A DNA stretch of 64,000 nucleotides from positions 49,463-113,462 of the IMG/VR virus record IMGVR_UViG_3300010365_001407. One strand, written 5' to 3'. Positions 3,465 through 50,399 of this stretch are shown here, one piece after another. A model generated the notes under the pieces. The model saw only the letters and a program-made list of their open reading frames with translations. It was not told where the DNA came from and did not search any database. The translations under genes and the position numbers were made by a program. Each line of letters begins with the position of its first letter. Within the stretch, counting starts at the first letter, position 1. This DNA is from a virus. Its lineage: Duplodnaviria > Heunggongvirae > Uroviricota > Caudoviricetes.

Positions 3465-6233
3465 ATGGCTTTAGTTGTCTTTAGTGAAAGAATAGATTTT
3501 AATTCAATTACTCCTCCAGAACAAGGTGGATATATAGTTGGATATAATATAGAGAATGATTTATTATCACAGATGGATTATCAAGGTATTGTTACTCCAA
3601 TAGGTGGTGTAGGAAGTGCAGGAACATTATTTAGTACATTATCACTAGGTAACACTACTGGTACATATTCTATAGTTTTAGATAGTTCTATAACAAAAGG
3701 AACTAATAAAATATCATTAGATAGTGGTATAGTTTCATTAACAACTGATAATGGTTCTTATGGAGAATCATACTTATATTTGAATTCAGGTAATGTAATT
3801 TTGGGTAATGGTTCCAGTAAAAGTTTTAGAATAGAAAATACAGGTATAACTACTAAATGGTCAGAGACTGATAGACAGATAATTAATACAAACTCATATG
3901 AGTTATTTTTAAATAATTTTGCAACATTACAATTTGGTCAATTATCATCAGGTGCTGGTAGTAAACTATCTGCTTTAATTTCTACCGATAACTCAACAAT
4001 TAGTAATAGTATTGTAAATACAGTTGTAATTGGTGGTCAAAATTTATCAGCAACACAATCTAATTCAGTTTATGTTCCTAACTTGTATATTCAAGATGGT
4101 AAAGTAATAAAAAGTACTAAGGGTACTGGTCAAATTAAAATTACTGAATTAGATATAATAACATCTAACTCTATTGGTAATTTTGCTTTAGTATCATCAA
4201 CTAGTTCAAATGTGTTCACTAAGAATGGTATTATCATAAAGGATAGTGCAACTGCATCAACAAGTCCTAATTTTGATTCTGGTATAACTTATATATCAAC
4301 TAAAAATTCAGGTGCAACTGCCAGTATAAAAAACTCTGTAATTATAGGTGGTAATGGTTTACAAGCCACTCAGGATAATACAGTATATCTTCCTAATGTT
4401 AATATAAATAATTTATATACATTACCATCAACTGATGGTACATCAGATCAGGTTATAAAAACAGATGGTTTAGGAAATTTATCTTGGACAACAGTAGGAG
4501 TTGGTGGAACAGGTGGAACAGGTTCAGGTATAACAAATACTATAACAAAGTGGACAAGTTCTTCAACTTTTGGTAATAGTAATATAACTGATGATGGTAC
4601 AACTATTAATATTAATGATTCATTAATAATAGGTACAAATTCTGTCTATACAAGTAATACATTGAATACAATAATTGGATATAGAACAAACGTATCTATG
4701 GCAGGTGGATTTAATACTGCTATTGGTGTTAATGCATTTAGGAATAATACAACAGGTGGAAATAATATTATTATGGGTAATAATTCACTCTATAATAATT
4801 CAACAGGTAATTTTAATCTTGCAATTGGTAATAACTCACTATATAATAACACAACCGCAGGTTTTAATATAGGAGTTGGACACAATACTTTATATGCAAC
4901 AACAACAGGTGTGGATAATGTTGCAATTGGTTATTTACCATTAAGTAGTAATACAACAGGTTCTAATAATATTTCAATTGGTAAAGCAGCAATGTTATTT
5001 AACACAACAGGTTCTGGTAATGTTGCAATTGGTTGGCAGTCATTACCAAGAAATACAAGTGCAGATAGTACAATTTCAATTGGTAGAAATGCAATGTTTT
5101 ATAGTAGAATAGGGGAACAAAATGTTGCAATTGGTGATGCCACAATGTATTACAATACCTTAGGAGGTTATAATGTTTCTGTTGGATATCAAGCAGCATT
5201 TGAAAATACAACAGGAATATTAACTTTAGGTACATTTTCTGAAGGAAGTGGATATACACCAGGAACACATTCAGGAGTTCAACTTAAATATAATGGTGGT
5301 GGTTTTTTAGATGTTGTTGCAAGTGATTATCCATTAGCAACAATAGTTGTTTCACCAGGAGGTACTGTGAGCTCAGTCACATTAGACACACCAGGACATG
5401 GATTTCAAAATACATCAACTATTCTTGGATGTACTGCAAGTCCAATTGGACCAGGGACTGGATTCACTGTAAGGATAAGTTCATTAATAAGCGGTGAATA
5501 TAATACAATTATTGGTAATGGTGCACTTCGTTATAATACAATAGGTAGTGATAATATAGCAATTGGTAAAAATGCTGGTAATAATACTATATTAGGAACA
5601 AATGTTATATCTAATAATTCTATATTTATAGGTAGTGATACTAGAGCACAGTCAACAGATGAAACTAATCAAATAGTAATAGGTTATAATACAACAGGAA
5701 ATGGATCTAACTCTACTACAATAGGTAATGATAATACATTAAAAACTATCATTAAAGGTAATGTTGGATTTGGATTAACTGGACCAAGTACAAAAGTTGA
5801 TATTTATGCAACTCAATCAGGTGGTGGTTTTAAACTACAAGATACATCAGAAGGACCAGGTTATGTTCTTATATCTGATGTGAATGGTGTTGCAAGTTGG
5901 ACATCTTCAGTTACATCAACCACAGCAATTGATGTTATAACATCAACATCAAGTATTACAACAAATACATTAACAGATGGTGGATATGATCAAAATGGTA
6001 GATGTGTTATTATAAATAATGGTACATATAGTATAAACCTTACTGTTAATTCTTATGACAGATTTACATCAACATATTTAAAACATGGAACTGCAAGTGT
6101 AACATTTGTACAAGGTTCAGGAAGAACACTAATTGATGTTGATGGTACATTTATATTAGATGGTTCTGTTGGTTCAACTGCAACAATAATAAGTTATGGT
6201 ACAACTGATTACTTAAGAGTAAGTAATGCATAA
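3465..6233 (+). CDS. tail-fibre-like structural protein with YadA-head / Hep_Hag-like tandem repeats
   Basis: 922 aa, N/S/T/G-rich. More than 12 tandem units of about 15 aa of the form NTTGxxNxAIGxxAL between aa 400 and 600. Confidence 0.65.
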   Translation: MALVVFSERIDFNSITPPEQGGYIVGYNIENDLLSQMDYQGIVTPIGGVGSAGTLFSTLSLGNTTGTYSIVLDSSITKGTNKISLDSGIVSLTTDNGSYGESYLYLNSGNVILGNGSSKSFRIENTGITTKWSETDRQIINTNSYELFLNNFATLQFGQLSSGAGSKLSALISTDNSTISNSIVNTVVIGGQNLSATQSNSVYVPNLYIQDGKVIKSTKGTGQIKITELDIITSNSIGNFALVSSTSSNVFTKNGIIIKDSATASTSPNFDSGITYISTKNSGATASIKNSVIIGGNGLQATQDNTVYLPNVNINNLYTLPSTDGTSDQVIKTDGLGNLSWTTVGVGGTGGTGSGITNTITKWTSSSTFGNSNITDDGTTININDSLIIGTNSVYTSNTLNTIIGYRTNVSMAGGFNTAIGVNAFRNNTTGGNNIIMGNNSLYNNSTGNFNLAIGNNSLYNNTTAGFNIGVGHNTLYATTTGVDNVAIGYLPLSSNTTGSNNISIGKAAMLFNTTGSGNVAIGWQSLPRNTSADSTISIGRNAMFYSRIGEQNVAIGDATMYYNTLGGYNVSVGYQAAFENTTGILTLGTFSEGSGYTPGTHSGVQLKYNGGGFLDVVASDYPLATIVVSPGGTVSSVTLDTPGHGFQNTSTILGCTASPIGPGTGFTVRISSLISGEYNTIIGNGALRYNTIGSDNIAIGKNAGNNTILGTNVISNNSIFIGSDTRAQSTDETNQIVIGYNTTGNGSNSTTIGNDNTLKTIIKGNVGFGLTGPSTKVDIYATQSGGGFKLQDTSEGPGYVLISDVNGVASWTSSVTSTTAIDVITSTSSITTNTLTDGGYDQNGRCVIINNGTYSINLTVNSYDRFTSTYLKHGTASVTFVQGSGRTLIDVDGTFILDGSVGSTATIISYGTTDYLRVSNA

Positions 6234-6247
6234 AAATAATAAATAAT

Positions 6248-7033
6248 ATGTTTAATAATACATTTTTTGAATTTGGATATAATGTTATATTTGAACCTGA
6301 ATATATTGCAATATTAGATTATGCAAAGTCTAATGGGTATCAATTACCTAAAAGAAATCAGAATTTTAAAAATAATAAAAAAATAAAAAAACTAAAGTCA
6401 GAAGGTATATTTACTGAATTAGATATATTATACAACTTTAAACAACATTCAGGATTAAGTGATTTCAGTAAGATAAATTGGGTAAATCCTGGTGTCTATA
6501 ATGCAACACAGAGTAATGTTATAAATCATCCTGTTTTAGAAAGTGATAAAGGATTTAAAGGTGGTACAAATAGTTATCTATTAACTGATTATATACCATC
6601 TATTAACTCTAATAAAGCACAATTAGAAGATGTTACTGTTTTCTTTAAAACATATGATGAGATACAAGGTGTTGTTGCAGGTACAAGAAATGGTTCAGGT
6701 AATAACTTTGTATTTAGAAAATTTAATCCATCAGGTAATAATGTTGCTAATTTTCATGGTAATAGTGGTGGGGATGGACTAAATGTATTTGCTGATAATA
6801 AGCATGTTATTCATTCAAAATTTGGATTAACACATAGTTATTATGTTGATGGAACTTTAACAACCACTGGTACATATTCCAGTACATTCTTCAGTACAGT
6901 TCCATTAACAATTTTTGCTTGGAATTTAAATGGTACAATATCACAAAATTTTGAAGGTGGTATTGAATACTTTGCACTTGGTAGTTCCTATATAGGAACA
7001 AAGGCATTAGAAATATCTGAGATATTTAAGTAG
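6248..7033 (+). CDS. hypothetical protein, possible lectin-like fibre-associated protein
   Basis: 261 aa directly downstream of the fibre gene; Gly/Asn-rich beta-like C-terminal half. Domain assignment is a guess. Confidence 0.45.
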   Translation: MFNNTFFEFGYNVIFEPEYIAILDYAKSNGYQLPKRNQNFKNNKKIKKLKSEGIFTELDILYNFKQHSGLSDFSKINWVNPGVYNATQSNVINHPVLESDKGFKGGTNSYLLTDYIPSINSNKAQLEDVTVFFKTYDEIQGVVAGTRNGSGNNFVFRKFNPSGNNVANFHGNSGGDGLNVFADNKHVIHSKFGLTHSYYVDGTLTTTGTYSSTFFSTVPLTIFAWNLNGTISQNFEGGIEYFALGSSYIGTKALEISEIFK

Positions 7034-7119
7034 AAGAGAGCAAGGGAATCGAACCCTAGCCAGTTTCCCGACCGTCACGCTTAGCAGGCGGACCCTATCA
7101 CCATCAAGGTTTACTCTCC
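7034..7119 (-). tRNA. tRNA-Ser (anticodon GCU), class II long variable arm
   Basis: Reverse complement has a 7/7 acceptor stem (GGAGAGT/GCTCTCT with G-U pairs), anticodon loop CUGCUAA, a long variable arm and T-arm GGGTTCGATTCCC. Confidence 0.6.
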
Positions 7120-7128
7120 ATTTTTTAG

Positions 7129-7214
7129 CAGTGAACAAGGGAATCGAACCCTAGCCAGTTTCCCGACCGAACTGCTTTCCAGGCAGACCCTATCACCATC
7201 AAGGTTTACTCACT
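7129..7214 (-). tRNA. tRNA-Ser (anticodon GGA), class II
   Basis: Near-identical scaffold to 7034-7119; anticodon loop CUGGAAA; acceptor AGTGAGT/GTTCACT. Confidence 0.6.
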
Positions 7215-7218
7215 ATTG

Positions 7219-7306
7219 CGGAAGAAGTGAGACTTGAACTCACACGGGTGTTACCCCCAACAGTTTTCAAGACTGCGACCCATAGACCAACTTGGCTTAT
7301 TCTTCC
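7219..7306 (-). tRNA. class II tRNA, anticodon read as UGA (Ser); assignment tentative
   Basis: Perfect 7-bp acceptor GGAAGAA/TTCTTCC, T-arm GTGAG-TTCAAGT-CTCAC, anticodon stem-loop GCAGT-CTTGAAA-ACTGT and a long variable arm. The D-arm is hard to place by eye. Confidence 0.5.
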
Positions 7307-7349: not shown

Positions 7350-7435
7350 TGGAGAAGTGAGGTATCGAACCCCATGCGAGTAAACGCACCCACAGTTTTC
7401 AAGACTGGGTTTAGCACCTGCTAAATTACTCCTCC
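7350..7435 (-). tRNA. class II tRNA, anticodon loop CTTGAAA (UGA-like); identity tentative
   Basis: Acceptor GGAGGAG/CTTCTCC, T-loop TTCGATA and a 17-nt variable arm. It has the same anticodon loop as 7219-7306, so one of the two may be mis-read. Confidence 0.45.
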
Positions 7436-7442
7436 ATATTTG

Positions 7443-7515
7443 TGATTCCAATAGGATTCGAACCTATATCTGATCGTTCGTAGCGACCTATCCTATCCAA
7501 TTGAACGATGGAACC
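7443..7515 (-). tRNA. tRNA-Arg (anticodon ACG)
   Basis: 73 nt; acceptor GGTTCCA/TGGAATC, anticodon stem GGTCG/CGATC with loop CTACGAA, T-arm TAGGTTCGAATCCTA. Confidence 0.6.
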
Positions 7516-7522
7516 AATAAAA

Positions 7523-7552
7523 AAACCCACAAACTTTGAGGTTTGTGGGTTT
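7523..7552. terminator. bidirectional rho-independent terminator hairpin
   Basis: AAACCCACAAAC-TTTGAG-GTTTGTGGGTTT is a perfect 12-bp stem flanked by A-run and T-run. Confidence 0.6.
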
Positions 7553-7727
7553 CAAATAACTTTTAACTTAAAATTATGAATACACAAGAACCTCACTCAA
7601 TTTACTTGAGCGACTTGAAGAACTTGACGATGTAGTGCTTTGCACTCTCACTATGTGAGTACTTATAATTGTTTTCATAACTTATATATTAAAAATTTAT
7701 TCTTTTGTTTTACTTTTTTACTTTTAG

Positions 7728-7820
7728 TAGTCTGAACAGGAATCGAACCTGTGATGCGCGGAAGATACCCCTACTATATATAGGATCGACTACATAATGT
7801 TACCACTACATTATCAGACT
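7728..7820 (-). tRNA. tRNA-like element with irregular core, possibly Ile(UAU)-like or a pseudo-tRNA
   Basis: Canonical acceptor AGTCTGA/TCAGACT and T-arm ACAGG-TTCGATT-CCTGT, but 93 nt long. About 10 extra nt sit between the D-arm and the only good anticodon-like hairpin (TCCTA-TATATAG-TAGGG), which has A at position 33. Confidence 0.35.
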
Positions 7821-7829
7821 ATTTTTTTG

Positions 7830-7901
7830 TGCGGACTGACGGAATCGAACCGACCTCTTATGGGCTTCAACCATACGCTAAACCGTCTCAGCTAAATCCG
7901 C
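7830..7901 (-). tRNA. tRNA-Phe (anticodon GAA)
   Basis: 72 nt; acceptor GCGGATT/AGTCCGC, anticodon stem TATGG/CCATA with loop TTGAAGC, T-loop TTCGATT. Confidence 0.6.
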
Positions 7902-8678
7902 ATTATATTTTTTTATCCATTTTCTTATAGTGTTATCACTAACACCATATTTTTTACCAGTTGAGACATAGTTTGTTTCTTTTATATCTTTTAATAGTTG
8001 GTATAATGAAGGTCTTTCAACCTTTCTTTGTTTAAATGAATCACATTTAGAACACATTTTAGAACGTTTATATATTTCTATACCACATTCACAATACTTT
8101 TTATTATCTAATAGTTCAAATGTTGGTTTGTTTTCTACTAATCCATTTATATAAAGTATTAAACTGTCAATAAAATACTTTTTAGAATCCTTGTTCAATA
8201 ATTGATACTCACTCCATTTTATTCTAATTATATCCCAACCTAAGTCTTCTAAATATTTATTTCTTCTTTTATCACTTTCAATAATTTTATTATCTAAATA
8301 GTGTTGACTACCATCAACCTCTATATCTATTTTCTTATCTAAAATACAAAAGTCTAATTCGTACAATCCAATTCTGTAGGATTTTGTTATATTAATATTT
8401 TTATCTAAAAAAACCTCAGTAAAATATTTCTCAGGATATGATTCATTTCTACTATGATTTAATAGGTAAGGAACTTTATCAGGATTATTTTTTAAATATT
8501 CTTTTCTACTATTTGATATTTTTTTTCTAGTTTCATCTGATAACTTTCTATTTTTACCAATTTCACTTAATTTACTACATCTAATTTTATAATTTGGATT
8601 TAATTTACAATTTGTAATATGTCCACCAAGTTTTAATCCATTTTCTGTTGTAAATCCACAATACTTACACTCCTTCAT
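7878..8678 (-). CDS. homing-endonuclease-like protein (N-terminal Zn finger, NUMOD3-like motifs, Vsr/DUF559-like PD-(D/E)xK domain)
   Basis: 266 aa; CKYCGF...HITNC, LSDETRKKISNSRKEY, and YELDFCILDKKIDIEVDGSQHY...RRNKYLEDLGWDIIRI. Confidence 0.6.
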   Translation of the reverse strand: MKECKYCGFTTENGLKLGGHITNCKLNPNYKIRCSKLSEIGKNRKLSDETRKKISNSRKEYLKNNPDKVPYLLNHSRNESYPEKYFTEVFLDKNINITKSYRIGLYELDFCILDKKIDIEVDGSQHYLDNKIIESDKRRNKYLEDLGWDIIRIKWSEYQLLNKDSKKYFIDSLILYINGLVENKPTFELLDNKKYCECGIEIYKRSKMCSKCDSFKQRKVERPSLYQLLKDIKETNYVSTGKKYGVSDNTIRKWIKKYNADLAETV

Positions 8679-8754
8679 AATTCAATTATCTTTTCTTTTA
8701 TATATAAATAATTGAACTCCCTCTCCTTAAAAAAGCTGAGTGCTTGTAAATTAG

Positions 8755-8833
8755 TTCCCCCGACTGGGTACGATCCAGTAGTCTGCATATTAAAAGTATG
8801 CGGCTTTCTCCATTTAAGCTACGGGAGAGAATT
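8755..8833. repeat. 79-bp direct repeat, copy 1 (contains tRNA-Lys)
   Basis: Identical to 9152-9231: GTTCCCCCGACTGGGTACGATCCAGTAGTCTGCATATTAAAAGTATGCGGCTTTCTCCATTTAAGCTACGGGAGAGAATT. Confidence 0.9.
8756..8828 (-). tRNA. tRNA-Lys (anticodon UUU) with A54:U58-swapped T-loop
   Basis: Acceptor TCTCCCG/CGGGGGA, D-stem GCTT/AAGC, anticodon stem GCATA/TATGC with loop CTTTTAA, T-arm ACTGG-ATCGTAC-CCAGT. Confidence 0.55.
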
Positions 8834-8838
8834 ATTTG

Positions 8839-8911
8839 GGTGAAAGACGGATCCCGAGACCGCATCTCCTCCTTCACAGGGAGGCATCCTAACCTTTAGA
8901 CGACAATCACC
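8839..8911 (-). tRNA. degenerate tRNA-His-like element (anticodon GUG, G-1/C73), possible pseudogene
   Basis: Perfect anticodon arm CCTCC-CTGTGAA-GGAGG with extra 5' G and discriminator C. Only 5/7 acceptor pairs and a non-canonical T-arm (GCGGT-CTCGGGA-TCCGT). Confidence 0.3.
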
Positions 8912-8920
8912 ATATATCAG

Positions 8921-8991
8921 CACGCCATACAGGACTCGAACCTGTAACACTGGTTTTGGAGACCAGGATGATACCATTTCACCAATGACGT
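8921..8991 (-). tRNA. tRNA-Trp (anticodon CCA)
   Basis: 71 nt; acceptor ACGTCAT/ATGGCGT, anticodon stem CTGGT/ACCAG with loop CTCCAAA, T-arm ACAGG-TTCGAGT-CCTGT. Confidence 0.6.
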
Positions 8992-8998
8992 ATTTTGG

Positions 8999-9072
8999 GT
9001 TGACAGACGGGACTTGAACCCGCAATCCCTTGGCTCACAACCAAGTGCTTTAACCAATTAAGCTACCATCAA
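8999..9072 (-). tRNA. tRNA-His (anticodon GUG)
   Basis: Acceptor TTGATGG/CTGTCAA (two G-U pairs), D-stem GCTT/AAGC, anticodon stem CTTGG/CCAAG with loop TTGTGAG, T-arm GCGGG-TTCAAGT-CCCGT, discriminator C. No encoded G-1. Confidence 0.5.
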
Positions 9073-9074
9073 AG

Positions 9075-9146
9075 TGGAGAGAGTGGGGATCGAACCCACG
9101 ACACCTGCGGCTTCAACACAGTGCTCTACCTCTGAGCTACCTCTCC
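9075..9146 (-). tRNA. tRNA-Phe (anticodon GAA), second copy
   Basis: 72 nt; acceptor GGAGAGG/TCTCTCC, D-stem GCTC/GAGC, anticodon stem CTGTG/CGCAG with loop TTGAAGC, T-arm GTGGG-TTCGATC-CCCAC. Confidence 0.6.
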
Positions 9147-9151
9147 TTTTT

Positions 9152-9231
9152 GTTCCCCCGACTGGGTACGATCCAGTAGTCTGCATATTAAAAGTATGCG
9201 GCTTTCTCCATTTAAGCTACGGGAGAGAATT
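9152..9231. repeat. 79-bp direct repeat, copy 2 (contains the second tRNA-Lys)
   Basis: Identical to 8755-8833. Confidence 0.9.
9153..9225 (-). tRNA. tRNA-Lys (anticodon UUU), duplicate
   Basis: Identical sequence to 8756-8828. Confidence 0.55.
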
Positions 9232-9237
9232 TATTTT

Positions 9238-9702
9238 TTAAATCTTAATATTCATATTATTAATAAATTGTAACATGCCCCAATTTTGTTGTTTTGAGGT
9301 TCTTATTCTATGACAATTGGCACACCTAACATCACATTTATTTATCTCATTTTTTATTTTAACTAAATCAACACCTTCACTAATCATATCACATAAATTA
9401 CCAATCTTTTCAACATTATCTTTGTGATCAAATTCTAATACTATTGGATTATTTTCACCACAATCAACACAAGGATTTTCCAAAAGATAATTATAAATAT
9501 ATTCAATTCTTTCAATTTTTCTTTTTCTTTTTCTTTCATTTATCATAGGTTTCATTATTTCTTTATTGACTTTATAATAATTATGTGAATTATTCTTACT
9601 ACAAACTCTACATATAGAATTCAAACCATCTTTTCTAACTTTATTTTTATTAAACTCTGTTTTATTTTTAACTTCTTTACATGTACCACAATACTTTTTC
9701 AT
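9238..9702 (-). CDS. HNH homing endonuclease
   Basis: 154 aa; CGTC...CRVC zinc knuckle and C-terminal EFDHKDN...CANCH HNH motif. Confidence 0.7.
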   Translation of the reverse strand: MKKYCGTCKEVKNKTEFNKNKVRKDGLNSICRVCSKNNSHNYYKVNKEIMKPMINERKRKRKIERIEYIYNYLLENPCVDCGENNPIVLEFDHKDNVEKIGNLCDMISEGVDLVKIKNEINKCDVRCANCHRIRTSKQQNWGMLQFINNMNIKI

Positions 9703-9737: not shown

Positions 9738-9765
9738 AGTGAGTTCCTTCAAATAAAAAACCCAA

Positions 9766-9795
9766 ACTTTTTGTAAAGTTCGGGTTTCTGTCTAT
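9766..9795. terminator. terminator-like hairpin
   Basis: AACCCAAACTTT-TTGT-AAAGTTCGGGTT, an imperfect 12-bp stem. Confidence 0.4.
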
Positions 9796-10032
9796 GTTTT
9801 ATTATTCTCTTATCTATATAACTAACTATTTAAAGTTACATCTGAGAATGACATACTCATACATCCGAACTTGTGGCTAAACCACTTGAACGACTTACTA
9901 AAGCTTGTATGTTTGAAATTTGTTCTCATTATTGTATATATTAATTTATTATTGTTCCTTTTTGTTATTTTGTTATTTTTATAGTACAAATATATAAAAA
10001 GTTTATATATCTACCTAATTTTTATGCTATTT

Positions 10033-10293
10033 TTATTCAAATTTTAAACTATGTTTCATAAAGTCACTTACATTAAACAATTTAACTTGCTTATTTCTTG
10101 TAGTTGTGTATTTAATCTCATTATATTCATATACATTAATATATCTAATACCACGTTCAAATTGGTATTCTGCTATACCATATGCTAAAGTTACTTTACC
10201 ATGTGGTCCATTATATCCTTTTAAAAATACCATCATATTTTCAATATCTTTACTTGAAGATAATTCAACTTGTATGTATGTCTGTTTTTTCAT
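10033..10293 (-). CDS. hypothetical protein
   Basis: 86-aa ORF with the promoter-like motif AAATATATAAAAAGTTTTACTTTCTACCTAATTT immediately upstream at 10296-10335. Confidence 0.5.
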   Translation of the reverse strand: MKKQTYIQVELSSSKDIENMMVFLKGYNGPHGKVTLAYGIAEYQFERGIRYINVYEYNEIKYTTTRNKQVKLFNVSDFMKHSLKFE

Positions 10294-10446: not shown

Positions 10447-10665
10447 ATGATCCCATTTTTGTTTTTAATTTTTTATATATACTTTATGCCAGTACGCTCA
10501 AAATCACAACTTAAATACATCTTTGCAATGCGTAAGAAGTACAAATCAAAAAAGAATGCACCCAAAGATAAAAAATGGGTATTCAATGATGAATGGACTA
10601 AAGGTGTTGATACAGGTGGTATGCCAACTAAAGTAAAAGATTTTAAATCATTTAATGTTGATTAA
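10447..10665 (+). CDS. hypothetical small basic protein
   Basis: 72-aa ORF with a hydrophobic N-terminus; weak support. Confidence 0.3.
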   Translation: MIPFLFLIFYIYFMPVRSKSQLKYIFAMRKKYKSKKNAPKDKKWVFNDEWTKGVDTGGMPTKVKDFKSFNVD

Positions 10666-11066
10666 GCTAATGCTTCTTTAATTACTTCTGATACTACTTT
10701 TCTGTCAACTTGTAAAGTTGCAAACTCTTTCATAATACCACCAACATTAGTTACACCAGATGCTACAAGTTCATTTACTTTAGTAACAATATCCTCTCTT
10801 GTTAAAGCAGCTGGAAGTAAAGCTTCTACAATAGTTAATTGTAATTTAGACTCTTCATCACCACTTGTTGCAATAACCTCATTCAAAGATTTTGCAGTTT
10901 TGTTAAGGATTTTGATTACTTCTGCATCAGAAAGACAATCAACTCCTGTATTTTTTTCAATAGTTTGGATCTCTCCTTTTACTACAGAAAGTAAATTTTT
11001 TGCTACTGCATTTCTTTCTTTGAAAGCAGTCATGTAGTCTTTGCTAATTTTTTCTTTTAAACTCAT
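10662..11066 (-). CDS. GatB/YqeY-domain protein
   Basis: 134 aa; MSLKEKISKDYMTAFKERNAVAKNLLSVVKGEIQ...LLPAALTREDIVTKV...ASGVTNVGGIMKEF matches the YqeY / GatB C-terminal-domain family end to end. Confidence 0.7.
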   Translation of the reverse strand: MSLKEKISKDYMTAFKERNAVAKNLLSVVKGEIQTIEKNTGVDCLSDAEVIKILNKTAKSLNEVIATSGDEESKLQLTIVEALLPAALTREDIVTKVNELVASGVTNVGGIMKEFATLQVDRKVVSEVIKEALA

Positions 11067-13220: not shown

Positions 13221-13562
13221 AATCAAATCATTGATTCGATCATTTATTTCATATAATAAACCCATACATTCTCTTTTCAAATCCTTTAGTCTATTAAAAT
13301 CACTGACACTAATTGGTTTATTTAGAGCATCATCTATACCTCTTATTTCTAATTCAATATTGTCTCTGATTAAACCAATCTCAAATAGAATATCTCCTTT
13401 GATTTCATTTATTAATAAACTAAAATAAGGATTACTCATAAGTCTTTCTTTGTATGTAGATACATTAAAACTTTTGATAATCCTTTTTAAGTTTTTTATT
13501 ACTTCTTCTTCACTACCTGAACTATGGAGTTTTTCAAAGAAGTCTTCTATGTTATGTTTCAT
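13212..13562 (-). CDS. hypothetical protein
   Basis: 116-aa ORF overlapping the start of the downstream homing-endonuclease gene. Confidence 0.45.
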   Translation of the reverse strand: MKHNIEDFFEKLHSSGSEEEVIKNLKRIIKSFNVSTYKERLMSNPYFSLLINEIKGDILFEIGLIRDNIELEIRGIDDALNKPISVSDFNRLKDLKRECMGLLYEINDRINDLILL

Positions 13563-14428
13563 GTTTTTAAATCTCTTTTAACTTTATAAATAAGTGATTG
13601 GCTAAATCCAGTATTTTCTTTTATCTTTTTAATATCTTGTCCCTCAATAAGTAGATTTTGTATAATGTTATATTTATCACATTTTAATGTTCTATCAACC
13701 ACTCTATCCCATTTTCTTTTCATTATAGGTAAATTTAGAGACAATGCTCTATTCTTAATTTTAAGAACTACTTTATTTTTAGTTATACATATTTTTGAAC
13801 ATCCATCAGGTGATATATAAAAATTCTTTTTTGATGATGTTAGTATATAATATGCTTCTTCTAAAAAATATCCCCATGAAGAATCACATTTAAGATATAA
13901 TAAACCCTTTTTACTTATACAACCATCACCATCTATAAATCCAATCATCATGCTAAATAGTTGGTCATTGGTTATGTTATAAGGTATTTTTACTGGATTC
14001 TTGGTTTTATTAGACAACCAATTAAAGTCATTAGATAATTTACTCACACTTTTTCTATCTGAAATTACAAGTCTTATATCATTTTTATACTCATATTTGC
14101 ATACTTTTCCTATATGTTCTTCAATTTTTAAAATATATTCTTTATCTTTTATTGATAAGTTTATCTGAATGTTGGATTTTTTGTATATATGACCATCAGC
14201 AAGTATAAAACCTATCCAATAACAAGTTATATTATCAGTGTAATCAATTATTTTTGAATATTTTGAGTTATTTTTTGATTCATTAGAACCTTTTTTTATT
14301 TTATTTAAACAAGCAATTTTTTGTATATAGTTCCAAGAAAGATTTGTATCTTTAATTATTTCATCTTTAGATTTTTTATTATAATTTGATTTCAAATAAT
14401 CAATCAATTTTATTTTAGATGGTTTCAT
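13559..14428 (-). CDS. LAGLIDADG homing endonuclease, two-motif single chain
   Basis: 289 aa; YWIGFILADGHI and MMIGFIDGDGCI LAGLIDADG motifs, HTH-like tail; promoter-like motif at 14430-14458. Confidence 0.75.
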   Translation of the reverse strand: MKPSKIKLIDYLKSNYNKKSKDEIIKDTNLSWNYIQKIACLNKIKKGSNESKNNSKYSKIIDYTDNITCYWIGFILADGHIYKKSNIQINLSIKDKEYILKIEEHIGKVCKYEYKNDIRLVISDRKSVSKLSNDFNWLSNKTKNPVKIPYNITNDQLFSMMIGFIDGDGCISKKGLLYLKCDSSWGYFLEEAYYILTSSKKNFYISPDGCSKICITKNKVVLKIKNRALSLNLPIMKRKWDRVVDRTLKCDKYNIIQNLLIEGQDIKKIKENTGFSQSLIYKVKRDLKT

Positions 14429-34467: not shown

Positions 34468-35556
34468 ATGACACAAGAAATTTTAAACCCAGAATTAGGT
34501 AATCCAGACTTTGATCTTTTATATGCAGATGATATATATAAAAGAGGACAAAAGTTACAAGATAAATACCTTGATTCACTTTATGACTCTATTCAAATAG
34601 AGACCCCATCTGCTGGTTCAGTAGTAAGATCTACTTATTTGGGTATGATGTCCAATCAATATGTGTTCAGTGTTGTTGGTTACAAAGATGATGTTCGTAT
34701 TGAGAACAAACCAGGTGAGGCAAAATACCTTAACTCCATTGAAGTTGGAGAACAAGTTGATTTGTTAATCACTGAGGTAGTACAAAGTACTTACTTCATC
34801 AAAGGAAGTATTGCTTCTTTATATGAATCTAGAGCTCATGAAAATATGAAGTCTTTAGAGGAAGGAGAATCAGTAACTGCTTATATTAGAGCTTTAAACC
34901 CTGCAGGTTACGATGTAGAGTTGACAAATGGAGGAGTTACTCTTCCTGCGTTTATGCCTAATACCTTGGCAGGTATCAACAAGCTTTATGACCCAAGTTC
35001 TATTATTGGAGACACTTTCCAAGTAATGGTTGAGTCATTCTCTGAACATGAAGGAACTTACATAGTAAGTCGTAGAAAGTATCTACAAAGCTTGATTCCT
35101 GATGAAATCAGTAATCTTGAGTTCAATACTCTATATTCAGGTAGAGTTACTGGTACTACACCATTTGGTATCTTTGTTGAGTTTAATGAATGTCTAACAG
35201 GTATGATCCACAAAGCTAATGTAATAGAAGAGTGGCAAAACAGAATCTCTGAAATCAAACCAGGACAAGAAATTGAATTCTATATCAAGGAGATTATCAA
35301 AGATAAGATTATCCTTACACAAGTTTTGAGAGAAACTTTATGGGACACTATCAAAAATGGTCAATTGATTGAAGGTAGAGTAAAAGATGTTAAACAATTT
35401 GGTACTTTGGTTATCTTAGATGATGAAACAGTTGGATTAATCCACACATCAGAAATGGAGAAACTTGGTAAGAAGTTCACATCTGGACAAGATATTAGAG
35501 TGAAAGTTCTATCAGTAGATAGAAGTTCACGTAAAATCTTCTTAACTTTAGGATAA
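34468..35556 (+). CDS. ribosomal protein S1-like protein (four S1 RNA-binding repeats)
   Basis: 362 aa; four S1 repeats of about 70 aa, e.g. GRVTGTTPFGIFVEFNECLTGMIHKANV and GRVKDVKQFGTLVILDDETVGLIHTSEM; ends VDRSSRKIFLTL. Confidence 0.7.
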   Translation: MTQEILNPELGNPDFDLLYADDIYKRGQKLQDKYLDSLYDSIQIETPSAGSVVRSTYLGMMSNQYVFSVVGYKDDVRIENKPGEAKYLNSIEVGEQVDLLITEVVQSTYFIKGSIASLYESRAHENMKSLEEGESVTAYIRALNPAGYDVELTNGGVTLPAFMPNTLAGINKLYDPSSIIGDTFQVMVESFSEHEGTYIVSRRKYLQSLIPDEISNLEFNTLYSGRVTGTTPFGIFVEFNECLTGMIHKANVIEEWQNRISEIKPGQEIEFYIKEIIKDKIILTQVLRETLWDTIKNGQLIEGRVKDVKQFGTLVILDDETVGLIHTSEMEKLGKKFTSGQDIRVKVLSVDRSSRKIFLTLG

Positions 35557-47900: not shown

Positions 47901-50399
47901 CATAAAACTAAATTCAATAGATCTAGATTAATTACAGGTATATTTAAAAGAGCTTATATTACTAATTCATTATTGAGAGATGAATCTTTTGATGTTAGTG
48001 ATAAAGACTTTAATAATATTAAAAAGTTAAAAAATTTAATATTTATAGATACTATATTCTCAAATAACTCTAATATTTTATCTAAGGCAACTTATATGAA
48101 TTCATCTTTTGTAGGTGGTACTGATATATGGGATAATGGTATAGTTTATGATTCTATTTGGAATGGAGGAAACTTTAAAAATGGATTAGTAAAAGAATCA
48201 ATTTGGGTAGATGGTATATTTAGTGATGGTCTATTTTATAACTCAAGAAGTTTTAATAATGACTTATTAGGTGTTGACTATAATGAAAATGTAAAAACCA
48301 GATATTATAAAAGTGGTACTGAATCTAATGCAAGATTTTCATGGCAAAATGGTACATTTTTAAATGGTGAATTTTATAAAAGTGATTGGGAAAATGGAGT
48401 ATTTAATGGTGGTAAGTTTTACTATTCTAAATTTTATAATGGAATATTTAATAATGGTGTTATAGGTGATAGATCAATTCCTATAGATGATACTTGGTTC
48501 TATAATGGAACTATAAATTATGCAGTTGTGGAAAATTCCAAAATTGTTTCTCAGAAGTATAATGGTATTTCAAATTCTGTTATTACTTGGAACAATGGTA
48601 TATTTAATTCAGGTGTTTTTGGTACAAATGATACACAAATGGTGACTTTGACTAACCCAGGTGGAGGCACCACAACCAGTTTTGTAGTTAATACTGCTAC
48701 TTGGAGTTATGGTATATTTAATGGTGGTGAGTTTAGAAATAAAGCAAAATGGAAAGATGGTATATTTAATGGTGGTAAATTCTTATCTAACTATGGATTA
48801 AATTTACCTGACAATAGTTTACAACCTAAAGAAGACTATTCTTGGGAGTATGGTATATTTAATGGAGGTGAGTTTGGTAATGCAAACACTATAACTAACT
48901 CAAATTGGTTTGATGGTGAGTTTAATGGAGGGCAGTTTAAGGGAAGAGTTTGGAATAATGGTATATTCTCATTTGGAGAATTTTTAGGAAGTGGTGGTAT
49001 TGCAATTGGTGGAACATCATCAATTGTATTACAATCTAATCCAGGTAAATTTGTAAACTCATATAATTTCCCACCATTTGGATCTATAAGAAGATACTAT
49101 GGTCTATGGAGAAATGGTTATGTAACTGATATTAAAGATAAGTATATTACAGATAAAAAATTATATACTGATATTAAAAGGTCAAGTGATACTACTAAAG
49201 TTGTCAATAAAGCTATTTTAAAAAATATGCTTTGGGAAAAAGGTATATTTTCACACCCAGGTGGTGAGATGATTAACTCAGTTTGGTTGGATGGTACATT
49301 TGAAAGTGGTAGATTTTTATCAAGTTCATTTAATCCTTATGTAACAAGAAATGGTGTTAATAGATTTAATTTTAGTGATACTTGTTCTTGGAAGAATGGT
49401 ATATTTGATGGTGGTGAGTTTAATATTTCTACTTGGGAAAATGGAACATTTGTTTCAGGAACTGCAGTAGGTATGAATTGGAAAAATGGTATTGTTAATT
49501 ATATGAATGCATATAATGTATTCTGGGAAGATGGTTTATGGAGAAATGGTAACTGGAATGGTTCTTATTTTAACTTAACTAAAACAGGTTCAGTTATTGA
49601 TAATTATGCATTACAAGTTCTAAACAATGGCATGCCACTTGGTGTTACATCATCATCTTTACATGTTTGGAATATATTTCATAATGAATCATTAAGTGAT
49701 TATACACAATCTAATACAACAGGATTTGTATTTTCAGCCAATACTAATGATGATAGTCCACCTGCTTGGAGTTCAAATAGTAGTTTTGGAGAAGTTGGTA
49801 CAATACCTACAACTTCTTCAATTACTATAACTTGGGATCCTGCAGATCCTGAGTTTGATTTATTACCAGAACCACTTACTACTGAGAATAGAATTGGTTC
49901 AAATACTTCTATGAAAATTTTATTAACAAGTGTACTTAATAATTTAATAAATGCAGAATGGCAACTAAGTTCAGATGGTACAAATTGGTCTTCAAGTCCT
50001 GTAACTATTGCAGTTGAAAATATATTTACACAAATGCCTATAGGTGATAACTATTTCAGAATTGAGGATACAATAACCACTGGATTATCAATAAGTACAA
50101 TATATTCTAATGTTTTAAAATACACAAAACAATCATACTCATTTTTAGTTTCAGTAGGAGTCAAATCATGTCAGTATTCAAATTTTGTGGGTCAAACAGT
50201 ATTTTCAACTCAGTTTACAGAAACTTTATATTCTGATTCACCTACATTAACATATAATACAATCTTATATACAAATCCAAATCTTACAATACTTACAAAT
50301 GTAACAACAATAAAATTAGAGACAGGATTAATAATTTTTGAGTTGGTTTCAGGTGAAATTTTGAATTTGACTCCTGTAGGTGAGATTTGTTTTAACTAA
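44973..50399 (+). CDS. giant virion protein (tail fibre / appendage-like) with W-x-x-G-x-F-N-G-G-x-F repeats
   Basis: 1808 aa; central region has many degenerate repeats such as WENGVFNGGKFY, WKDGIFNGGKFL, YGIFNGGEFGN and WFDGEFNGGQFKG. Gly/Asn/Ser/Thr-rich. Confidence 0.6.
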   Translation: MSTFSSANIIQKNIITKPYLLTTEELNQIGSGINLVGYDFLKTLPTPIDETIVNFRYGNPSSPRLLNWVEDYTIAGVKYTLFYTEVNSGLKVGDKVFIINGAYDSNLLIQQDKYKKGRDGYKVLFVDECIIVLDIEFIGWLPSSETSENQDVFDDFIKVYYINDQNDFIHVNRQITTRNYNFDFKFNPYQNNLIFTDVNTFESVDGWGENAGLTGGPGFFIKNGTYSWINITTDFMSGSYSLVDTYSNNKILILNGGFAINGFEFKEDSVYKWDSTLLTWVVNVKHENNNPPIITKSNFRRGKFDGQWNGGLYGTSDERIIWNSSTATWNSGTLLNTIWQTGIMNSFYSQPDSYFAEFDYSFATSSAPYGLPYQKVNNPDNNGYGYNFVINSDIQNAVINNGNVTNSKLGASASSYLVVEKYLDGTFDINNFGTASGLTVNKALFDNCKFINANIENTEIRNSRAVNSRFNKVKSVNSHYKSSLFLNSNYISDNIIKVLDYDEFTYSSFNNATETHKVYKFYINKRSYEKFKLKDSFYIKGIKINDNTSNLINFFDTKFKVGPWKEYYDYNLVDANEYGFQKFSLTYNAFVSTPKENEYRYSVNGGNFLQDIKGKDYYSVDIFVKKDFDLLPLININDKPAKDFNDTFMGTGILDFSEAYIVNSDFESGVFENSNWNSGNHINYSNDNNITKGLISGGGLYNFTLSSSATNSLFIENTISNLGVDSEVELDYFEDDSIVFLNAVDYDTRGKVTGFTIVNQGAGYTSSILTTSGGSGTGLTIDVQASTIGSVNGILFVPDNNNNYYDATLGYTTRFTNVVTQNGPTTGVGLEVLITVSNLAPYFITSISVSSAGYGYNIGDELEVQHVNSNEPPGTTKFTITSILNGGVLNTSTQSYQGLGYQVGDLVTLVGGVVPSIIEINSVEGTLTRLPDAYKIKRTINGTTQQLELISLTGLPTLLDNGLFLTTNAENKYGYLHKTKFNRSRLITGIFKRAYITNSLLRDESFDVSDKDFNNIKKLKNLIFIDTIFSNNSNILSKATYMNSSFVGGTDIWDNGIVYDSIWNGGNFKNGLVKESIWVDGIFSDGLFYNSRSFNNDLLGVDYNENVKTRYYKSGTESNARFSWQNGTFLNGEFYKSDWENGVFNGGKFYYSKFYNGIFNNGVIGDRSIPIDDTWFYNGTINYAVVENSKIVSQKYNGISNSVITWNNGIFNSGVFGTNDTQMVTLTNPGGGTTTSFVVNTATWSYGIFNGGEFRNKAKWKDGIFNGGKFLSNYGLNLPDNSLQPKEDYSWEYGIFNGGEFGNANTITNSNWFDGEFNGGQFKGRVWNNGIFSFGEFLGSGGIAIGGTSSIVLQSNPGKFVNSYNFPPFGSIRRYYGLWRNGYVTDIKDKYITDKKLYTDIKRSSDTTKVVNKAILKNMLWEKGIFSHPGGEMINSVWLDGTFESGRFLSSSFNPYVTRNGVNRFNFSDTCSWKNGIFDGGEFNISTWENGTFVSGTAVGMNWKNGIVNYMNAYNVFWEDGLWRNGNWNGSYFNLTKTGSVIDNYALQVLNNGMPLGVTSSSLHVWNIFHNESLSDYTQSNTTGFVFSANTNDDSPPAWSSNSSFGEVGTIPTTSSITITWDPADPEFDLLPEPLTTENRIGSNTSMKILLTSVLNNLINAEWQLSSDGTNWSSSPVTIAVENIFTQMPIGDNYFRIEDTITTGLSISTIYSNVLKYTKQSYSFLVSVGVKSCQYSNFVGQTVFSTQFTETLYSDSPTLTYNTILYTNPNLTILTNVTTIKLETGLIIFELVSGEILNLTPVGEICFN

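Follow-up and report, generated by a model that had tools for sequence, protein, structure and literature searches.

The T-loop modifications m5U54, pseudouridine-55 and m1A58, as well as the folding of the transfer RNA (tRNA) elbow, rest on the pair of U54 and A58. This pair has been described as universally conserved in elongator tRNAs (PMC7912444). In eukaryotes, the initiator tRNA-Met and the tRNA-Ala with anticodon AGC have an A54/A58 loop with a purine at position 60 (PMC7566577, PMC7912444), and A54/A58 pairs are said to be absent from bacteria and archaea (PMC7566577). In the stretch of viral DNA analysed here (the window: 64,000 nucleotides, positions 49,463 to 113,462 of the Caudoviricetes record IMGVR_UViG_3300010365_001407 of IMG/VR), two identical tRNA-Lys(UUU) genes that carry A54 and U58 stand as direct repeats within an array of tRNA genes. 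The GC content of the window is about 27%, that of an AT-rich large phage, and the database entries most closely related to it are uncultured huge phages of 634-735 kb and a viral contig (L001) of 597 kb.

Homing endonuclease genes are found in the tRNA regions of phages T4, T6 (SegB) and T5 (the HNH genes hegA, hegC and hegD), and SegB is associated with cassette exchange (PMC2330249). Phage T6 escapes the Septu defence by amplifying a tRNA-Tyr segment in tandem, a process driven by SegB along with UvsX and UvsY (PMC13096335). tRNA-Lys(UUU) is a known target of PARIS, whose AriB nuclease is escaped by T5 by means of its own tRNA-Lys(UUU) (PMC11464382, PMC12409363). Like the SegB-type system, the window has free-standing genes of the homing endonuclease type (ORF154 and ORF266) by a tRNA segment; head-to-tail tandem units are not found, and there is one 398-bp unit with a second Lys gene, the endonuclease genes lying outside the unit.

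The T-loop is the more interesting part of this locus. The sequence comparisons point to A54/U58 as a natural, functional alternative T-loop class in viruses and cells, which is apparently little described, while the duplication is likely an ordinary, if neat, outcome of the evolution of an endonuclease-rich tRNA array.

Two identical tRNA-Lys(UUU) genes

A repeat search of the window identified a direct repeat that is exact over 80 nt, which is far beyond chance within 64 kb, with a start-to-start distance of 398 nt (Table 1). If one mismatch is allowed, the repeat pair extends to 83 nt (8751-8833 and 9149-9231). A preliminary description of this DNA had reported the identity correctly but placed the start of the downstream repeat at 8755, one base short of the exact stretch. 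It had also stated that each repeat carries a tRNA-Lys(UUU) gene, leaving the strand unstated; both genes (copy A in the upstream and copy B in the downstream repeat) are on the minus strand and were called by ARAGORN, and copy A (9153-9226) scored 51.8 bits with the Rfam tRNA model (RF00005), the gathering threshold of which is 29. ARAGORN called no other Lys(UUU) gene in the window.

The minimum free energy fold of the Lys gene was a cloverleaf with a T-loop of 7 nt. The isoacceptor marks of a tRNA-Lys are present, namely the 7-nt loop CUUUUAA, which holds the anticodon UUU along with U33 and A37, and the discriminator A73, and the elbow partners G18 G19, U55, C56 and G53-C61 are kept, with the D-loop AAAUGGAGA. 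Alignment to the covariance model read the T-loop as A54 U55 C56 G57 U58 A59 C60 within the T-arm ACUGG-AUCGUAC-CCAGU, in agreement with the T-loop ATCGTAC noticed earlier; the model did not shift the loop elsewhere, an outcome that would have spoken against the preliminary description. The U54/A58 pair that is usual in elongator tRNAs is absent from both copies. In copy A (anticodon 9192-9190, T-loop 9172-9166, CCA not encoded), A54 is position 9172 and U58 is position 9168; in copy B (anticodon 8794-8792, T-loop 8774-8768) they are positions 8774 and 8770. The departure from U54/A58 leaves the call of the gene as a tRNA unaffected.

Neither copy was reported by Rfam cmscan when searched alone (8740-8836 and 9148-9240); copy A was reported only when the neighbouring Phe gene was included in the searched stretch, and copy B was never reported. 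Since the two copies are identical, this is an effect of the pre-filter and not a structural difference, and it was not taken as evidence against the Lys gene. A filtered Rfam search loses the variant tRNA when it stands alone, and such genes may therefore be under-annotated.

The A54/U58 T-loop in viral and bacterial tRNAs

A generic probe for tRNA-Lys(UUU) with the motif GGATCGTnnCC was run on viral contigs and on bacterial and archaeal genomes, one per species. In the viral contigs, at least 113 probe matches lay in tRNA-Lys genes called by ARAGORN, with 67 distinct sequences among the matches listed, and in the bacterial and archaeal genomes at least 78 matches were tRNA-Lys(UUU) genes. 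Sixty-eight of the 78 listed bacterial Lys genes were the sole tRNA gene in their 8-kb locus, and many had an encoded CCA. The carriers among the bacterial matches listed include Reyranella (with complete chromosomes), Hyphomicrobiales, Gemmatimonadota, Myxococcota, Deinococcales and Planctomycetia. The presence of the class in chromosomal tRNA-Lys(UUU) genes of several bacterial lineages argues that it supports normal translation. In the cultured Limosilactobacillus difficilis BHUE2 (L165, 6263-7980), Lys(UUU) alone has the A54/U58 loop (AUCGUAA) in an operon of 18 tRNAs.

Forty diverse A54/U58 Lys tRNAs folded into one cloverleaf, in which changes on both sides were seen at 17 of the 20 pairs. 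Positions 54 and 58 were also tallied in the tRNAs of the fetched loci, after probe-selected genes and duplicate sequences had been removed. The tally for the viral loci was U/A 795, A/U 46, A/A 16 and U/U 1 (Fisher p = 3e-61) and that for the bacterial loci was U/A 135, A/U 20, A/A 7 and U/U 1 (Fisher p = 8e-19). The 46 viral A/U tRNAs represent 15 isoacceptor types, including Ile, His, Phe, Asn, Thr, Glu, Tyr, Lys-CUU, Met, Leu, Val, Trp and Asp. The earlier suggestion of a compensatory swap is therefore borne out at the level of sequence, as A54 and U58 covary strongly over hundreds of tRNAs; the T-loop had, however, been treated as a peculiarity of this Lys gene, and it belongs instead to a widespread class, also cellular, with constraints of its own at positions 57 and 60.

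These constraints were strict. Loops of the A/U class had G57 in 177 of 177 cases, U60 in 0 of 177 and a G53-C61 pair in 172 of 177. In the de-duplicated viral set, U60 was present in 656 of the 795 tRNAs of the U/A class (83%) versus 0 of the 46 of the A/U class. Position 60 was never U in the A/U and A/A classes; it was mostly A in viral members, and mostly C in the bacterial A/U Lys tRNAs, as in the window. The window loop AUCGUAC fits the rule of the class, A54 U55 C56 G57 U58 N59 and a base other than U at 60, on a G53-C61 stem.

The class is also found among phages related to that of the window. AUCGUUA loops occur in Phe and His tRNAs of a related huge phage, LR745206, and contig L005 has loops of the class in three tRNAs: an ortholog of the window Lys, a second, different Lys (AUCGUUA) and a Phe (AUCGUCA); its Trp and another Lys have canonical T-loops. 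The T-arm of the window Lys recurs in a tRNA with anticodon CAU of an unrelated contig (L003), and all tRNAs of T5 have canonical T-loops. An exact 20-mer of the window Lys T-arm had no match in the bacterial genomes, indicating a host without this very gene, and BLAST of the window tRNA against 50,697 cultured phage records gave marginal partial matches only. No paper naming the A54/U58 pair was found in the literature searched, although older and subscription literature may describe the class.

Several further departures at these positions were noticed. The L005 ortholog of the variant Lys (1393-1468) has an anticodon loop of 8 nt (CUUUUUAA), in which ARAGORN reads a 4-base anticodon; this is either a homopolymer sequencing error or a tRNA resembling +1 frameshift suppressors. 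A G54/G58 class was present in eight tRNAs of the viral loci, all with A57 (Thr-UGU, Lys-CUU, Met, Cys and Glu), and a C54/A58 class was present in Phe tRNAs of the viral loci, and also in L002 at 4032-4105.

In the trans Watson-Crick/Hoogsteen family of Leontis and Westhof, U-A and A-U pairs are not isosteric unless the bases exchange roles. A strand-swapped reverse-Hoogsteen geometry for A54/U58 is conjectural, as sequence cannot distinguish one pair geometry from another; what stands of the swap proposed in the preliminary description is the covariation. The accompanying changes at positions 57 and 60 suggest that the loop has been re-tuned. By chemistry, a tRNA with A54 and U58 cannot carry m5U54 or m1A58, and the formation of pseudouridine-55 may also be impaired, given the recognition of the T-loop by TruB/Pus4.

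The class is a coherent counterpart of the so-called "universal" pair. Phage tRNA arrays commonly carry it, and in Limosilactobacillus and Reyranella it is the ordinary tRNA-Lys(UUU). Its presence in culturable bacteria opens the way to study the geometry of the pair, the behaviour of a tRNA without T54 and m1A58, and the proneness of Lys(UUU) to this change.

Origin of the second copy

As had been described, the repeats enclose four tRNA genes, which are, in minus-strand order, Phe (Phe1), His, Trp and a weak His-like tRNA; only spurious open reading frames (ORFs) lie within 8834-9151. The stop codon of ORF154, an HNH endonuclease gene, is 11 nt upstream of Lys copy A, and the start of ORF266 is 75 nt downstream of Lys copy B. 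Matches of ORF266 to Vsr/DUF559/MTES_1575 were above the Pfam cut-offs, those to NUMOD3 and HTH were weak and below curated cut-offs, and by these domains the product looks like a free-standing homing endonuclease.

The viral contig L002 matches the window at 90-96% identity in the flanks and has the same downstream series of His, Trp, His-like, Lys (A54/U58), ORF266 and Phe2. Homology between the two breaks at 9078 and resumes at 9751 (conserved upstream region 9751-10045), and in this gap L002 has a Lys with a canonical T-loop, a Trp and a Phe with C54. ORF154 is missing from L002 and from a second relative, L247, whereas ORF266 is also present in L002. L247 has a single Lys of a third type with a canonical T-loop, the 5' flank of which consists of the His-like gene and spacer of copy B, while from its 3' end through the AAAAA spacer to Phe1 it agrees with copy A (98.9% identity). 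Phe1 with its 5' spacer is accordingly 98.9% identical to the L247 Phe, and is not an ortholog of the L002 Phe at the same position. The only Lys of L001 stands in a compact Trp-Phe-His-Lys array; it shares the T-arm of the window Lys and differs from it at four positions, including a compensatory change at 2-71 (U-A versus C-G in the window). The context of copy B, with the His-like gene upstream and ORF266 downstream, is common to L002 and L004. The Lys gene itself is identical in L002 and L004 and, save for one inserted T, in L005, the other aligned DNA of which is 81-84% identical to the window.

Comparison of L002, L247 and L001 indicated that copy B occupies the ancestral position of the variant Lys, that some Lys(UUU) gene always precedes Phe, and that the variant Lys occurs in both places, by an inserted HNH gene, only in the window lineage. 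The duplication is lineage-specific by this comparison, the upstream "Lys slot" having been replaced beside the HNH gene.

The reading that we favour, and consider probable as a whole, is that a conserved phage tRNA-Lys(UUU) gene with a T-loop of a natural class is present twice in working form, the second copy having arisen when a slot was rewritten with, or next to, the HNH gene. Copy B would be ancestral, keeping the His-like/Lys/ORF266 context of the relatives, and copy A would fill the slot before Phe in which the relatives have another Lys(UUU) with a canonical T-loop. This slot would have been rewritten in the window lineage together with, or beside, the inserted HNH homing endonuclease gene: most likely, an endonuclease break was followed by double-strand-break repair, either from a co-infecting relative (cassette exchange) or from copy B, which would have served as a template for gene conversion via the 5' and 3' ends that are common to Lys genes. 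The outcome would be a 398-bp unit (Lys-Phe-His-Trp-His-like) with a second Lys at its end. The benefit might be a double dose of the decoder of AAA, which is plausible because AAA is the second most used codon here (68 per 1000, versus 15.5 per 1000 for AAG), and perhaps a better resistance to tRNA-Lys-cleaving defences. Recombination between the 80-bp repeats could readily delete the unit or amplify it in tandem. The locus would then be a clean natural example of how endonuclease-rich tRNA arrays are rewritten cassette by cassette, with a remaining repeat pair of the kind usable by recombination-driven amplification.

Several points weigh against this reading. The benefits in dosage and against defences are speculation, and the expression, aminoacylation and modification state of the Lys tRNA are predictions. 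The T-loop class counts come from related, probe-enriched loci and record covariation, not independent events. Deletion or amplification by means of the repeats, which had been raised before, is mechanistically plausible, but no contig with the 398-bp unit deleted or amplified was found. The link of ORF154 and ORF266 to the rearrangement is one of adjacency only. No donor of the ORF154-Lys junction was found, either among the ORF154 relatives L006-L008 (39-53% identity) or in a scan for Phe1, in which L247 proved to have Phe1 without ORF154 and without the variant Lys. The leader that the copies share beyond the tRNA is AATTC (5 nt); with one indel it becomes AAATAA(A)TTC, the 9-nt spacer after the His-like gene, which is a weak hint that copy A came from a His-like/Lys context, an AT-rich motif of this length being weak evidence in a genome of such low GC content. 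Finally, cassette import, intragenomic conversion and plain unequal crossing-over would fit the observed arrangement alike.

The last of these leads to the strongest rival, a simple and recent duplication or gene conversion within the genome in which the endonucleases took no part. Replication slippage or unequal crossing-over would have produced it; the preliminary description had likewise proposed a recent duplication or ongoing gene conversion. The 80 nt, including the 5-nt leader, are 100% identical, and a 398-bp unit followed by a second Lys is what a tandem duplication at its beginning, or what is left of one, would look like. In comparison with L247, the flanks of a single ancestral Lys are divided between the two copies. 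The identity nevertheless carries little information, as six of the eight tested array tRNA genes (the downstream Lys, His-like, Trp, His, Phe2 and Arg) have a 100% match in L002, in a region that is about 92% identical overall. Copy identity therefore does not date the event, and a "recent duplication or ongoing gene conversion" is not established by it. Moreover, ORF154 and Phe1, which surround copy A, are not copied from elsewhere in the window, and Phe1 differs from Phe2 and matches L247 instead. No simple local duplication therefore took place, and we judge this explanation to be rather unlikely, though it retains some weight.

A further possibility, which we hold to be doubtful, extends the T-loop result: A54/U58 (with G57 and no U60) would be an unrecognised structural class of working elongator tRNAs devoid of T54 and m1A58, favoured in phage arrays by evading nucleases directed at the T-loop, and the variant Lys genes would be cleavage-immune alleles. 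The variant would remove the canonical GGTTCGAATCC sequence, or the canonical elbow, read by such nucleases, which at the DNA level might be homing endonucleases such as SegB and at the RNA level defence nucleases or modification-dependent sensors. The variant Lys alleles by ORF154 and ORF266 would then have spread along with the endonuclease genes. We know of no defence that reads positions 54 and 58. The reported cleavage motif of SegB, RAWTSGAAC, is the complement of GTTCSAWTY, the T-loop (PMC13096335).

That the A54/U58 Lys serves not as a translation adaptor but as a decoy or a regulatory RNA resembling tRNA, or is a pseudogene in decay, is very improbable. In favour of such a reading, the gene departs from a near-universal T-loop pair, the Rfam pipeline misses the gene when it is searched alone, and the phage group also has canonical Lys(UUU) genes. 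Against this, its score is well above the Rfam threshold (51.8 bits versus 29), with four intact stems and G18 G19 present, and the variant Lys is the best conserved tRNA across these phages. Compensatory changes occur in every stem of the class, many bacterial lineages have a member as a lone chromosomal tRNA-Lys(UUU) with encoded CCA, another member stands inside a housekeeping tRNA operon (Limosilactobacillus difficilis), and the window has no other Lys(UUU) gene.

An assembly artefact was also considered, in the form of a misjoin induced by the repeat, or of two strains or a longer tandem array collapsed into one sequence. The 80-bp repeat exceeds typical assembly k-mers, a 97.3% variant contig (L252) stops at window position 9202, inside copy A, like contigs broken at repeats, and a consensus sequence cannot show the copy number of the 398-bp unit. 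However, both Lys copies are carried by L250 (ENA ERZ772708, 34.9 kb) and L251 (JGI 3300025737), which are 100% identical to the window over 6.5 kb and 5.9 kb, respectively, although either may be the window's own source. An identical ORF154 protein is present in ten contigs, the context of copy B is seen in L002 and L004, and the junction of the Lys 3' end with Phe1 is seen in L247. Since all four junctions are real, no linear path other than the assembled order would pass through each of them once. The gene order is sound and an artefact is unlikely, to the point of being highly improbable. Least credible of all are attL/attR-type repeats left by a small mobile cassette integrated in a tRNA-Lys gene, for although tRNA-containing direct repeats bound a discrete block, this block consists of four tRNA genes and has neither an integrase nor another ORF, the repeated sequence is the entire tRNA and not its 3' part, and the His, Trp and His-like genes in between are residents that L002 has as well.

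Other features of the window and comparison with known systems

The tRNA array comprises at least 13 genes on the minus strand and reaches to 7034 (Table 1). In a promoter and terminator scan, promoter-like sites were no commoner than in shuffled sequence, and one good terminator-like hairpin was seen (7553-7522).

Table 1. Coordinates of the repeats, tRNA genes and neighbouring genes in the window
Feature	Position	Strand	Basis
Direct repeat, upstream copy (5-nt leader, tRNA and 1 nt past the discriminator)	9152-9231		Repeat search, flank comparison
Direct repeat, downstream copy (80 nt exact)	8754-8833		Repeat search, flank comparison
tRNA-Lys(UUU), copy A	9152-9226	-	ARAGORN; Rfam tRNA model; cloverleaf MFE (minimum free energy)
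tRNA-Lys(UUU), copy B (same sequence as copy A)	8754-8828	-	ARAGORN
tRNA-Phe(GAA), Phe1 (canonical T-loop)	9075-9146	-	ARAGORN, Rfam
tRNA-His(GUG)	8996-9072	-	ARAGORN, Rfam
tRNA-Trp(CCA)	8921-8991	-	ARAGORN, Rfam
His-like tRNA, anticodon GUG	8839-8910, G-1 at 8911	-	Rfam, 34.3 bits; no ARAGORN call
ORF154, HNH endonuclease gene	9238-9702	-	PHROG phrog_2255, 8e-31
ORF266, Vsr/DUF559/MTES_1575-type nuclease	7878-8678	-	Pfam, PHROGs
Phe2	7830-7901	-	ARAGORN/Rfam
tRNA-like element	7727-7820	-	ARAGORN
Terminator-like hairpin	7522-7553	-	Promoter/terminator scan
tRNA-Arg(ACG)	7443-7515	-	ARAGORN/Rfam
Four long-arm Ser-type tRNAs	7351-7435, 7219-7306, 7130-7213, 7034-7120	-	ARAGORN/Rfam

Among the enclosed genes, tRNA-His(GUG) has an encoded CCA, unlike every other ARAGORN-called gene of the array, and has T at position -1 (9073), so that G-1 is not encoded despite the discriminator C73. 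The His-like tRNA, which is 100% conserved in L002, has C73, two U-U mismatches in the acceptor stem and U53-U61 in place of G-C; its T-loop is CUCGGGA (C54, G58) and that of its L247 ortholog is UUCGAGA (U54, A58), which is a second double change at 54/58.

The tRNA-like element has good acceptor, D and T arms, but ARAGORN reads a 4-nt anticodon (cgat) and Rfam gave no match. In its L002 counterpart (5356-5448) ARAGORN reads Leu(cag), and the two elements differ only by a variable hairpin in the anticodon and variable region. The gene at 7351-7435 scored 52.9 bits with the Rfam tRNA-Sec model (gathering score 47), but its anticodon is UGA (Ser) and not UCA; it looks like a long-arm Ser-type tRNA missed by ARAGORN. 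The adjacent Ser(GCU) and Ser(GGA) genes (7031-7116 and 7126-7211) are about 90% identical, a pair that sequence similarity marks as a probable older tandem duplication followed by an anticodon change.

The closest homologs of ORF154 (53% identity, in L006 and L007) likewise lie between Lys(UUU) tRNA genes. Adjoining the homolog in these contigs (4438-4614) are two tRNAs that, at 83-86 nt, are unusual in length for Lys; ARAGORN calls the first Lys(UUU) and the second Trp, although the latter also carries CTTTTAAT. The array of L005 holds a GIY-YIG-like ORF, assigned by eye from its translation.

Elsewhere in the window, a LAGLIDADG-like ORF (13559-14428, minus strand) is the third ORF of endonuclease type. 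An S1 RNA-binding-domain protein (34468-35556, plus strand), an SbcC/Rad50-like ATPase (61943-63640, minus strand) and an NAD-dependent DNA ligase are also encoded. A YqeY-like (GatB-related) small protein is encoded at 10662-11066 on the minus strand, 1.4 kb from the tRNA array; it was considered as a parallel of T5.081, a "tRNA amidotransferase", and was dropped, as BLASTP found no similarity.

With the SegB and T5 systems the locus shares free-standing endonuclease genes among tRNA genes, an array that is mosaic between relatives, and direct repeats that bound a tRNA segment beside an endonuclease gene. SegB, however, is a GIY-YIG enzyme, whereas the genes here are of the HNH and Vsr-like types, and the repeat in the window excludes the endonuclease gene, which in T6 is part of the tandem unit. 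In comparison with the amplification in T6, the window, known from sequence, has the precondition, two 80-bp repeats around a unit, and not the ladder. Duplications at tRNA att sites resemble the locus in having direct repeats that contain tRNA sequence, but in the window the repeat holds a whole gene, an integrase is lacking and the genes in between are resident ones.

Like the tRNA-Lys by which T5 escapes PARIS, the window Lys is a phage-borne Lys(UUU), with the residues U36AAUAU41 at the AriB site versus U36AAUC|A41 in E. coli; the T5 tRNA has a canonical T-loop. The likeness to a canonical tRNA-Lys(UUU) extends to the cloverleaf, the CUUUUAA loop, G18 G19, A15/U48, G53-C61, U55, C56, the 7-nt T-loop and A73, and the differences are A54 in place of U, U58 in place of A, and C60. 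In the eukaryotic A54/A58 tRNAs, as in the class described here, A54 is accompanied by loss of the usual pyrimidine at position 60, which in the present class is never U; the eukaryotic tRNAs keep A58 (as m1A58) in a longer purine-purine pair, whereas the class of the window has U58 and is found in bacteria and phages.

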